From a virus (lineage: Duplodnaviria > Heunggongvirae > Uroviricota > Caudoviricetes): a stretch of DNA of 57,859 bases. The stretch is taken from IMG/VR virus record IMGVR_UViG_2880406838_000004, one strand, 5' to 3'. Shown in pieces: positions 18,001 through 21,000 of this stretch (its first letter is position 1; each line of letters opens with the position of its first letter). The position numbers were made by a program.

Positions 18001-21000
18001 TGACACCGAAATCATGATGCGTGAGCGGTTTAACGTGCTGAACCATATCATCTGGGCAAAGCCGTCCGGACGCTGGAACGGGTGCAACAAGGAAAGCCTG
18101 CGGGCGTATTTCCCCGCCACAGAGCGCATTCTGTTCGCAGAGCATTATCAGGGGCCGTATCGTCCGAAAGATGCCGGGTATGAGGCGAAGGGTAGGGCAC
18201 TGAAACAGCATGTGATGGCCCCGCTGATTGCTTACTTTCGTGATGCGCGCGCTGTCCTGGGGATAACGGCAAAACAGATTGCAGATGCCACAGGAAAGAA
18301 AAACATGGTGTCGCACTGGTTCAGTGCCGGTCAGTGGCTGCTGCCGAACGAAAGCGATTATCTGAAATTACAGGCACTGTTTGCCCGGGTGGCAGAAGAG
18401 AAGCATCAGCGGGGTGAACTGGAAAAGCCCCACCACCAGCTGGTGGATACGTATGCCTCTCTGAACCGACAGTATGCGGAGCTGCAGAGTGAATATAAGC
18501 ATCTGCGGCGGTATTTCGGTGTGACGGTGCAGGTGCCGTACACCGATGTGTGGACGTATAAACCGGTGCAGTACTATCCAGGGAAACATCCGTGCGAAAA
18601 AACGGCAGAAATGTTGCAGCAGATAATCAGCGCAAGCAGTCGTCCGGGAGACCTGGTTGCAGATTTCTTCATGGGGTCGGGGTCGACAGTGAAAGCAGCG
18701 ATGGCGCTGGGACGTCGTGCAACTGGCGTTGAACTGGAGACTGAACGTTTTGAGCAGACGGTGCGGGAAGTACAGGATTTAATCATTCGTAACGGATGAG
18801 ATTGCGGAGTTAATCATGCGTCGTTATTATTCAGCAATCGGCCCTTTAGCTCAGTGGTGAGAGCGAGCGACTCATAATCGCCAGGTCGCTGGTTCAAATC
18901 CAGCAAGGGCCACCAACCGCCACTAGCTCATCAGGAAAGAACGTCACCCTGTGCGAGATTCGGAGTCCCCGGTGGCGGTCCATTATCGGTATTCTGCGTT
19001 GTTAGCTCAGCCGGACAGAGCAATTGCCTTCTAAGCAATCGGTCACTGGTTCGAATCCAGTACAACGCACCACACCACACTTATCTGCCCTGACTCTCTT
19101 TTGCGGGCTTTTTATTACAGGAAAGACACCGGACAGTGAAATGTTAAATGCCTCACAATTCAGGCAGTTGACTGTTGCCTGACATGCTGAGCGTTTGTTA
19201 AAAAAATCCTGCATGATGAATCCCCCTGAGCGGCGGGGCATAATGACAGATGTTTGGTTGCGTATTGTATAGGCAAGTTGCGGATTCTGTCTGGTCATTG
19301 CAGAATTCACCGGGAGGCACCCGGCATCATGCTGTATACAGAGATTAGGCATATATCCAGGCTTCTCATCGCAGGAGCCTTTTTACATGCAAAAAAAAGC
19401 CCGAGTGGGTTCGGGCAACAGCATGAGATACTTGCATTGTCATTTTTATCGTGTGGATTTTAACCAGGGTTTATAAGGCTGCGCAACTGCGCGGCCTTTT
19501 TCGTTTTGCGGGCTGCGGTTCTCCTCTTTTGATTCTCCTTGTGGCCGGACCGTGGCCCGCAACTGTTGAGGAAAATCCCGGAAAGGGGAGGAATAATGGC
19601 ATTTAAACACTATGACGTGGTCAGGGCGGCGTCGCCGTCAGACCTTGCGGAAAAGCTGACACACAAACTGAAAGAGGGCTGGCAGCCGTTTGGTAGTCCG
19701 GTGGCCATAACCCCTTATACCCTGATGCAGGCGATTGCAGCAGAAGGTGATGTGGTGGTCAGTGGTGCAACTGAGCCGGATTGGTACTACGTCATCGTAC
19801 TGGCCGGGCAGTCCAATGCAATGGCTTACGGGGAAGGGCTTCCGCTTCCGGATTCATACGATGCTCCGGATCCGCGCATTAAACAGCTGGCGCGCCGCAG
19901 TACAGTTACGCCGGGTGGGGCTGCCTGCAGATATAACGATATTATTCCGGCCGACCACTGCCTGCATGATGTGCAGGATATGAGTACGCTGAATCATCCG
20001 AAGGCAGACCTGAGCAAAGGGCAGTACGGCTGTGTCGGCCAGGGGTTACATATTGCCAAAAAACTGCTCCCGTATATCCCGAATAACGCGGGGATCCTGC
20101 TGGTACCATGCTGTCGTGGTGGTTCGGCATTTACCCAGGGCGCGGAGGGGACATTCAGTGCGGACACGGGGGCCAGCCAGGATTCGGCGCGCTGGGGTGT
20201 GGGTAAACCGTTATATCAGGACCTGATTGCGCGCACCAAAGCTGCATTACAGAAGAACCCGAAAAATGTGTTGCTGGCGGTGTGCTGGATGCAGGGAGAG
20301 TTTGACATGAGCGCCGCCACCCACGCACAGCAACCTGCGCTGTTTACAGCCATGCTGACACAGTTTCGTGCTGACCTCTCCGTGTTTAACGCGCAGTGCC
20401 ATGGTGGCAGTGCTGCAGATGTGCCGTGGATTTGTGGTGACACGACGTATTACTGGAAAAATACCTACGGCACCCAGTACAACACCATTTACGGGGCGTA
20501 CAAAAACAGGGAGAGTGAGGGCGTTTATTTTGTGCCCTTCATGACAGACGGTAACGGCGTCAATACCGCCACTAACGCGCCGGCAGAAGATCCGGATATT
20601 CCGGCATCAGGATATTACGGTGCGGCATCGAGAACGAATGGAAACCAGGTATCATCAAACCGCCCGACACATTTCAGTTCATGGGCGCGCAGGAGCATTA
20701 TTCCGGATCGTCTGGCAACCGCTATTCTGAACGCAGCCGGGCGCACCTCAGCCTTCATCAGTGGTAAGGCACCGGAAATTAAACCCTCGCCCGGCGGCAA
20801 CACGCCATCGGGTCCGTCTGCAGATACGTCGGTTCGCACAATCTCCCTGCTGCCGGCAGCCGGAGAGGCTGCTGCGCAGGGCTGGAGCATTAAGGATGGC
20901 GGAATTCAGTTGTCAGATGGTGTATTTAAGATCACCAAGCAGAGCAATAAAACCTGGTCCCTGACGCATCCGGTGGATGACGCAATTACCCTGCTGACAC

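Follow-up and report, generated by a model that had tools for sequence, protein, structure and literature searches.

Genes and RNA units of the late region

The window analysed here is a stretch of 57,859 nucleotides from IMG/VR virus record IMGVR_UViG_2880406838_000004, and it is a complete lambdoid prophage of the Sp9 type known from enterohaemorrhagic Escherichia coli (EHEC) O157:H7 Sakai and from O111. Our subject is its late region at 18800-19595, between a DNA methyltransferase gene and a gene of the nanS-p type, which a sequence-only reading had described as a tRNA cluster resembling that of Shiga toxin (Stx)-converting phages, with a decayed middle tRNA and without stx genes. With a probability of about 90%, we are dealing with the variable cargo ("moron") slot of a lambdoid late operon, in which three small RNA units, each transcribed independently, are present and toxin genes are absent. 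The identity, position, strand and homology of each element, as well as the insertion point, are established.

The gene order first proposed (Q-like gene, methylase, tRNA-CAU, degenerate tRNA, tRNA-Arg(UCU), nanS-p) was confirmed with Pfam, ARAGORN and Rfam. The Q-like late antiterminator gene (16609-17151, plus strand) matches Pfam DUF1133 with 367 bits and Phage_antitermQ with 35 bits, and its copy in Sakai Sp9, annotated as "phage antiterminator" ECs_1778, is identical. It is followed by an N6/N4 DNA methyltransferase gene (17741-18799, plus strand; Pfam N6_N4_Mtase, 143 bits), which is the DNA methylase ECs_1780 of Sp9, then by the tRNA block, and finally by an open reading frame (ORF) of the nanS-p esterase type (19596-21350, plus strand; Pfam DUF1737, SASA and DUF6645). 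With Q upstream, and with a holin gene (23207-23413, Phage_holin_2_1) and a lysozyme gene as endolysin (23813-24346, Phage_lysozyme) downstream on the same strand, the arrangement is that of a lambdoid late operon.

ARAGORN called exactly two tRNAs in the whole window, CAU and Arg(UCU), and Rfam concurs (RF00005, gathering score 29). For these and for the middle gene we use the names ileZ, argO and argN, as given in GenBank for 933W, Lahn2 and Sakai. The first tRNA (18840-18915, plus strand; 72.5 bits) has the anticodon CAU and is assigned to the ileZ type (tRNA-Ile2) because PGAP annotates the identical sequence as tRNA-Ile and because it is ileZ3 in Sakai. The second (18996-19072, plus strand; 71.4 bits) is a tRNA-Arg(UCU) of the argO type, named argO3 in Sp9, which reads AGA. 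A CAU tRNA of the ileZ type reads AUA after lysidine modification, and both AUA and AGA are rarer in the core genes of E. coli. Over 18 prophage ORFs we counted 13.5 AUA and 6.3 AGA per 1000 codons, and in a low-GC cargo gene at 53711-57112 the values are 51 and 22, respectively. We infer that ileZ and argO supply decoders for these two rare codons. Upstream of ileZ a putative tRNA promoter pT (TTGCGG, 17 nt, TATTAT; 18802-18830, plus strand) can be read from the sequence. It ends 10 nt before ileZ, its geometry equals that of the element annotated in 933W as "pT; putative tRNA promoter", and it agrees with the consensus at 8 of 12 positions, which is under the threshold of the promoter scan. 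The tRNA operon is probably driven by this pT-like promoter of its own.

The interval behind the tRNAs, 19073-19595, had been read as non-coding with only hairpin- and terminator-like elements. The first part of this claim stood, as no credible protein gene was found, while the second fell, since Rfam and an exact match to EcOnc03 place two known small RNA (sRNA) genes there. Two ORFs were dismissed: one of 116 aa (19002-19352, minus strand), which is antisense to argO, spans the junction that cassettes interrupt elsewhere and is unannotated in identical RefSeq sequences, and one of 69 aa (19254-19463, plus strand), which identical RefSeq sequences likewise leave unannotated.

The first of the sRNA genes belongs to the STnc100 family and is the EcOnc28 of Sp9 (19182-19390, plus strand). 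It matches Rfam RF02076 over the full length of the model (positions 1-206) with 175.2 bits, against a gathering score of 47, and the terminator scan and folding give it an intrinsic terminator of its own at 19359-19386. Members of the family are found at the same position in 933W (207.7 bits), in 75/02, in phi296 and in a Stx2c phage, and six homologues share 33 base pairs, 6 of which show compensatory changes. The Hfq-CRAC peak of EcOnc28 falls at ~19288-19333, within the STnc100 match, by our own offset arithmetic from the EcOnc03 coordinates. The RNA is related to PasD and homologous to EcOnc27/sRNA103 of Sp5, which lies downstream of stx2B and measures ~235/247 nt (PMC12711010, PMC12370729); overexpression of this Sp5 homologue alters the transcript levels of fimZ and espA (PMC12711010). 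A 2026 preprint also relates STnc100 to PasD and places it directly upstream of the esterase gene. Compared with STnc100/PasD copies elsewhere, the central part in the window is a distinct variant, ~80-86% identical or unalignable.

The second sRNA gene is convergent to the first. At 19395-19445 on the minus strand lies an exact match to the published 51 nt of EcOnc03 (Tree et al. 2014, Fig. S4; PMC4104026), a short Hfq-dependent sRNA of the AgvB/AsxR family, which ends in a terminator hairpin with a U-run and whose longest species probably starts near 19450. Rfam covers 19392-19451 (minus strand) with the AgvB model RF02702, that of an anti-GcvB sRNA, at 56.6 bits, barely above the gathering score of 56, and with the AsxR model RF02703, that of an anti-FnrS sRNA, at 46.8 bits, under the gathering score of 63; as a control, the AsxR of 933W reaches 88.1 bits. 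The AsxR label was rejected on this score. The AgvB score rests on the conserved 3′ module, and the motif CACAACA, the GcvB R1 target mimic of AgvB, does not occur within 19392-19451, so that the AgvB label was rejected too, although its score is reached. The missing mimic together with the exact match therefore leads us to the name EcOnc03. Its 5′ variable region reads AAAUGACAAUGCA, and the 5′ region of the AgvB-model match reads CGAUAAAAAUGACAAUGCA. With AgvB (EcOnc01 of Sp10/Sp17) and AsxR (EcOnc02 of Sp5) it shares the position and strand relative to STnc100 and nanS-p, the short length, the Hfq dependence and a conserved 3′ terminator module of ~42 nt, but it differs from AgvB by the lack of CACAACA and from AsxR in the 5′ end. 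In phi296 (our locus L004, 4578-4700) STnc100 and the hairpin upstream of nanS-p are kept while a different GC-rich hairpin replaces the AgvB/AsxR/EcOnc03-type RNA, from which it follows that the anti-sRNA is itself an exchangeable module.

Such convergent sRNA pairs have been described in Sp3, 4, 5, 9, 10, 11, 15 and 17, where they occupy the moron site behind pR′, and the pair of Sp9 consists of EcOnc28 on the plus and EcOnc03 on the minus strand (PMC4104026). Northern blots gave EcOnc03 as bands of 56, 54 and 51 nt that have heterogeneous primary 5′ ends and are unstable in a delta-hfq background, and by abundance the RNA ranks in the top three of the unannotated Hfq ligands of Sakai (PMC4104026). 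Both AgvB and AsxR have proven trans targets (PMC4104026), and it is their 5′ end that binds and neutralises a host sRNA.

Between EcOnc03 and nanS-p stands a conserved intrinsic terminator hairpin (19475-19508, plus strand) with a 10-bp stem and a T-run (-19.1 kcal/mol, z = -3.3). Its core is nearly invariant in all five aligned phages, with one stem base differing in phi296, and reads CTGCGCAACTGCGCG alike in 933W, 75/02, phi296, O111 and the window, while the flanks diverge. On the minus strand, the hairpin overlaps the likely -35 element of the EcOnc03 promoter (TTGCGC, 18 nt, TAAAAT). One could ask whether the structures between 19182 and 19510 serve the late operon only in cis, as terminators or insulators, and are not genes of trans-acting RNAs: three terminator-like hairpins stand within 330 nt, no other part of the interval is as conserved as the one at 19475-19508, and EcOnc03 and the Sp9 variant of STnc100 have no known target. 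We consider this very unlikely. Both RNAs were recovered in Sakai as discrete Hfq-bound species, EcOnc03 with mapped primary 5′ ends, and two members of its family act in trans (PMC4104026). Furthermore, the structure of STnc100 is conserved with compensatory changes well outside the terminator, and the fimZ and espA transcripts shift upon overexpression of the Sp5 homologue (PMC12711010).

Over 18800-19595 the window and Sakai Sp9 (ECs_1778 to ECs_1781) differ by a single base, located in the D loop of ileZ, and they share the gene order, the gap of 80 nt that holds the tRNA relic and the sRNA pair. The Sp9 annotation of this region lists ileZ3 and argO3 only and leaves the 80-nt gap between them unannotated. 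An 801-bp query found 100% identity in many genomes, of O111, of O157 and of others; at least 80% of the query was present in 525 genomes. The locus is ordinary and already known, as every functional element in it has been described in Sp9 of O157:H7 Sakai and in Stx phages. The differences from Sp9 lie outside: the window has an additional IS629/IS1203 in nanS-p, and the nanS-p coding sequence diverges right after the start codon. As a whole, the prophage is closest to O111:H-/H8 and not to Sp9, genomes of O111:H-/H8 being the top matches over 12 kb.

The relic of argN

The middle element is the relic of argN, a tRNA-Arg(UCG) pseudogene of 66 nt (18917-18982, plus strand), which lies within the 80 nt between ileZ and argO and begins 1 nt after the CCA of ileZ. 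It was identified by alignment to intact argN, using the ileZ-argN-argO block of Lahn2 and six alleles that included those of 933W and phi296. A deletion of 12 nt has removed the anticodon loop together with the 3′ strand of the anticodon stem; the T arm carries an insertion of 1 nt, the T stem has substitutions and the D stem a mismatch. The 7-bp acceptor stem and the CCA are intact. This agrees with the earlier description of a 66-nt element with a perfect acceptor stem and CCA that does not fold, and indeed its folding energy equals that of shuffled sequences (z = -0.27). Neither ARAGORN nor Rfam calls it, and the isolated 91 nt gave no Rfam tRNA match even at E<=10, while intact argN as the positive control scored 54.8 bits in 933W and 53.6 bits in phi296. 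As ARAGORN, Rfam at E<=10 and folding were all negative, we reject an unusual functional tRNA at 18917-18982.

How the middle position varies was followed in IMG/VR with a scan from the end of ileZ to the start of argO, which gave at least 120 loci; the sample is redundant and, because exact tRNA ends were demanded, biased. It contained at least 62 alleles of the middle slot among at least 128 matches. Intact argN, called Arg(UCG) by ARAGORN, was seen at least about 75 times. Alleles for which ARAGORN made no call comprised the window type with its 80-nt spacer (at least 7), an allele with a 100-nt spacer that has no Rfam match either (at least 27) and other alleles of 97/99 nt (at least 5). 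A 90-nt allele (at least 5) was called Lys(UUU) by ARAGORN only. Upstream of stx, there were at least one 97-nt allele called tRNA-???(cg) and at least one 99-nt allele called Arg(UCU). As side observations, the 100-nt-spacer allele (L012, 6109-6211, and at least 26 other IMG/VR loci) has kept its acceptor stem and CCA and lost the T loop; the 90-nt allele (L008/L009, 1518-1593), which ARAGORN takes for tRNA-Lys(UUU), is called by neither Rfam nor PGAP; and in one allele of the argN slot that lies upstream of stx the anticodon has become UCU.

It follows from these alleles that the middle tRNA has been inactivated repeatedly, independently at least two or three times (80-, 90- and 100-nt alleles), and the acceptor helix and CCA survived on each occasion. 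A stronger proposal would be that the relic is no neutral pseudogene but was kept as a stop for RNase P or exonucleases in the maturation of ileZ and argO, or as the source of a stable tRNA-derived RNA; we hold this to be most improbable. The more general idea that the middle element is not junk, its acceptor helix and CCA being kept as a processing signal of the precursor for RNase P or exonucleases, or as part of a stable tRNA-like RNA with a function of its own, draws on three observations. A perfect 7-bp acceptor stem with CCA survives beside wrecked D, anticodon and T arms, the second and independent decayed allele with the 100-nt spacer (at least 27 loci) retains the same parts without its T loop, and cleavage 1 nt past the CCA of ileZ, where the relic begins, would free the 3′ end of ileZ. 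However, the fold is not above that of shuffles (z = -0.27), and the lone "compensatory" pair in the acceptor stem (C:G vs U:A) is common to the 90-nt allele and therefore predates the decay of the relic. Polymorphisms within the allele strike the acceptor stem (GATGACGG and CGATGGCGG variants) at a rate that is roughly neutral by our own count, and by our estimate ~10 substitutions would leave 14 of 77 positions free of uncompensated changes with a chance probability of ~0.13. With the compensatory pair ancestral and polymorphisms falling in the stem, selection on the acceptor stem of the relic found no support and was rejected, and we give a retained function little chance.

The same relic is found in phages that carry stx. 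The 111 nt that span it are 100% identical in 15 records of Stx2c-converting phages, and in one of these phages the block is identical from ileZ through the relic to argO, with stx2c following it directly. Because the relic also occurs in carriers of stx2c, the decay of the tRNA is unrelated to the absence of stx. The decayed tRNA is no sign of a degraded former Stx phage.

The slot between argO and STnc100

Directly behind argO lies an eroded terminator copy (19087-19113, plus strand), homologous to the element annotated in 933W as "terminator upstream of the stx genes". Its hairpin has -6.0 kcal/mol, compared to -12.1 in phi296, -14.8 in 933W and -13.8 in a Stx2c phage. The erosion consists of two stem mismatches, which are also found in Sakai Sp9. 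The terminator scan did not pick up this hairpin.

Alignment of the flanks defines a linker without strand at 19114-19152, which fills the position of stx or of other moron genes. Homology to the left flank of 933W and the Stx2c phages stops at ~19113, just past the argO terminator, and homology to the right flank restarts between ~19139 (Stx1 phage 75/02) and 19153 (Stx2, Stx2c). Where one Stx2c phage (L007) has a 1342-bp stx2c cassette, the window has a linker of 25-39 nt, and this linker is common to the stx-less phages phi296 and Lahn2 with one mismatch. No stx was found: blastn with the 1342-bp stx2c cassette and tblastn with StxA and StxB against the whole window gave chance matches only (best E = 0.44), as had been expected from the sequence-only reading, and the similarity of the linker to the stx2c cassette is not significant. 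Kinship with Stx-phage flanking sequence, on which that reading depended, was found as well, the interval being homologous to 933W, 75/02 and the Stx2c phages. Consequently, the locus is a late region of the Stx-phage type with homology on both flanks, in which the stx position is unoccupied and stxA and stxB are absent. The proposed deletion scar did not materialise: comparison of the junctions with 933W, a Stx2c phage, 75/02 and two stx-less phages gave no remnant, and we reject a scar, as the flanks are joined by a short linker shared with stx-less phages and free of stx sequence. Overall, what was noticed in the sequence-only reading is confirmed; its interpretation was largely right but incomplete, and so is supported in part.

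A survey of related loci with the STnc100 core (at least 103 found), in which the distance from argO to STnc100 was measured, gives direct support to the slot as a variable moron site whose "empty" state is common. The distance is 100-140 nt in at least 51 loci, and 570-860 nt in at least 37, where the slot contains a TerB protein or a 108-aa unknown ORF. At least one locus has ~1150 nt with a methyltransferase-like ORF, at least 9 have ~1440 nt with stx2, and at least 3 have ~1450 nt without stx and with a TerB ORF. Among the cargo of these other loci (L009 at 1857-2449; L031, L053, L060, L086, L012) we noted a TerB-domain protein of 143 aa together with a DUF3927 protein, and in the same set the 108-aa ORF without Pfam match and a 311-aa ORF resembling N6-methyltransferases.

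The neighbouring phages show how the modules are combined. In 933W and Sp5 the order is Q, pR′, ileZ-argN-argO, stx2AB, EcOnc27 (STnc100), AsxR and nanS-p, and they share with the window the succession of tRNAs, terminator, STnc100-type RNA, convergent anti-sRNA, conserved hairpin and nanS-p. However, 933W has the intact argN, a slot occupied by a 1.34-kb stx2 cassette, AsxR instead of EcOnc03, another Q, and no methylase between Q and the tRNAs. The Stx2c phages (LC727876-LC727890) carry the ileZ-relic-argO block with 100% identity and a methylase upstream of it, although the stretch from the methylase to the argO terminator is overall ~81% identical to the window; they differ by stx2c in the slot and an intact argO terminator, and their AgvB/AsxR-family matches are all below the gathering score. 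In the Stx1 phage 75/02, STnc100 and an EcOnc03-type RNA follow stx1B, and this flank is near-identical to the window from ~19392. The stx-less Traversvirus phages phi296 and Lahn2 have the same empty slot and linker, followed by STnc100 and nanS-p, but differ in their intact argN (UCG).

With these comparisons at hand, the possibility can be weighed that the prophage once was a Stx-converting phage and that the loss of stxAB led, by decay, to both the empty interval and the dead tRNA. In its favour, the slot is homologous on either side to the flanks in Stx phages, the Stx2c phages have a tRNA block with 100% identity to that of the window, and 19392-19620 is nearly identical to the sequence that follows stx1B in 75/02; homologous recombination with a stx-less phage would be a clean replacement that leaves no scar. 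On the other hand, the window has no stx remnant (best E = 0.44), its linker matches phi296 and Lahn2 with one mismatch, and related loci are most often empty (at least 51 empty versus at least 9 with stx2, among the matches listed). The decayed argN in stx2c carriers additionally uncouples the relic from the absence of stx. We therefore regard this history as unlikely; as to direction, a lineage that was always free of stx and one from which a clean exchange of modules removed it would look alike in sequence.

Proposed working of the slot and its surroundings

In our preferred reading, that of a moron slot with three RNA units, the slot lies between the Q and methylase genes on one side and the nanS-p and lysis genes on the other. 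The first unit would be the operon of ileZ, the argN relic and argO, from whose precursor the two tRNAs would be matured, with the relic as a spacer. The STnc100/EcOnc28 sRNA on the plus strand with its own terminator would form the second unit, and the third would be the convergent EcOnc03 of 51-56 nt on the minus strand, with its conserved 3′ terminator module and variable 5′ end. In the lysogen, each of the two sRNAs would be transcribed from a promoter of its own, and the 5′ 14-18 nt of EcOnc03 may bind a host sRNA, by analogy with AgvB and AsxR. Upon induction, RNA polymerase modified by Q would start just behind the Q gene and pass all terminators to reach nanS-p and the lysis genes. Stx phages have their stxAB cassette between the first and second units, at the position that is unoccupied in the window.

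Several points weigh against this picture. As the argO terminator is eroded, the tRNA and STnc100 units may not be independent, and the tRNA transcript may run into the STnc100-type gene. Where the STnc100-type RNA begins is uncertain: northern blots size the Sp5 homologue at ~235/247 nt, more than the 206 nt of the Rfam model, so that the 5′ end may lie at the slot junction or ahead of it. The promoters of the sRNAs and of the tRNA operon are weak consensus matches, and a benefit by codon supply is the standard argument for phage tRNAs in general. Expression and Hfq binding of both sRNAs were observed in Sakai Sp9, whose sequence is almost identical. Finally, a sponge role of EcOnc03 is an extrapolation from AgvB and AsxR.

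The value of the locus as a discovery is small, since it is a textbook lambdoid moron slot in which Shiga toxin genes, other cargo or nothing stands beside phage tRNAs and Hfq-dependent sRNAs. A stx-negative prophage of the Sp9 type nevertheless still carries host-acting regulatory RNAs of the AgvB/AsxR and STnc100/PasD families. Annotation by genome pipelines misses the two sRNAs as well as the tRNA relic, and the Rfam label "AgvB" is functionally misleading at 19392-19451.

Downstream of the slot, the gene for the nanS-p type 9-O-acetyl-sialic-acid esterase is interrupted. Its 5′ 584 codons (19596-21347, plus strand) are separated from the remainder (22661-22759) by a 1310-bp IS629/IS1203 element of the IS3 family (21348-22657, minus strand), recognized by transposase ORFs with Pfam HTH_Tnp_1 and rve. 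The element breaks the gene 33 codons before the stop, and from the sequence we read terminal repeats TGAACCGCCCCGG... and a 3-bp target duplication CTG (21345-21347 and 22658-22660). In O111:H- 11128, as in the otherwise identical O111 genomes, the gene is an uninterrupted one of 616 aa, and an IS629/IS1203 at this site was found in none of the complete E. coli genomes among the best matches, these O111 genomes included. The early region holds two more copies of the same IS ORF pair (108 aa and 296 aa, minus strand), at 8948-10161 and 13358-14571, the latter being present in O111:H- 11128 too.

Some further features accompany the late region. Upstream of the Q-like gene stands a RusA gene (16247-16612, Pfam). 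Behind Q, we noted a candidate late promoter (TTGCTT, 17 nt, TTGAAT; 17158-17186) with a CCACC/GGTGG hairpin and T7 at 17249-17270, and another strong hairpin resembling a terminator (17577-17600) where a 65-aa ORF without Pfam match ends. A hok/sok-type module is present in Sakai Sp9 (L006, 1304-1453; Rfam sok, 103.9 bits), and O111 has a Hok/Gef coding sequence annotated at the position equivalent to ~14609-14749 of the window. The left end of the prophage is formed by an integrase gene (1-1119, minus strand); head and tail genes follow, and the right end holds low-GC cargo of the effector type. This cargo has a GC content of 30-41%; two of its genes are very rich in AUA and the second of them also in AGA, the codons that the two surviving phage tRNAs read. 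The first encodes a SopA/NleL-like HECT E3 ligase with pentapeptide repeats (50772-53120, AUA 28 per 1000 codons), and the second, at 53711-57112, whose AUA and AGA counts are given above, a DUF4765 protein.

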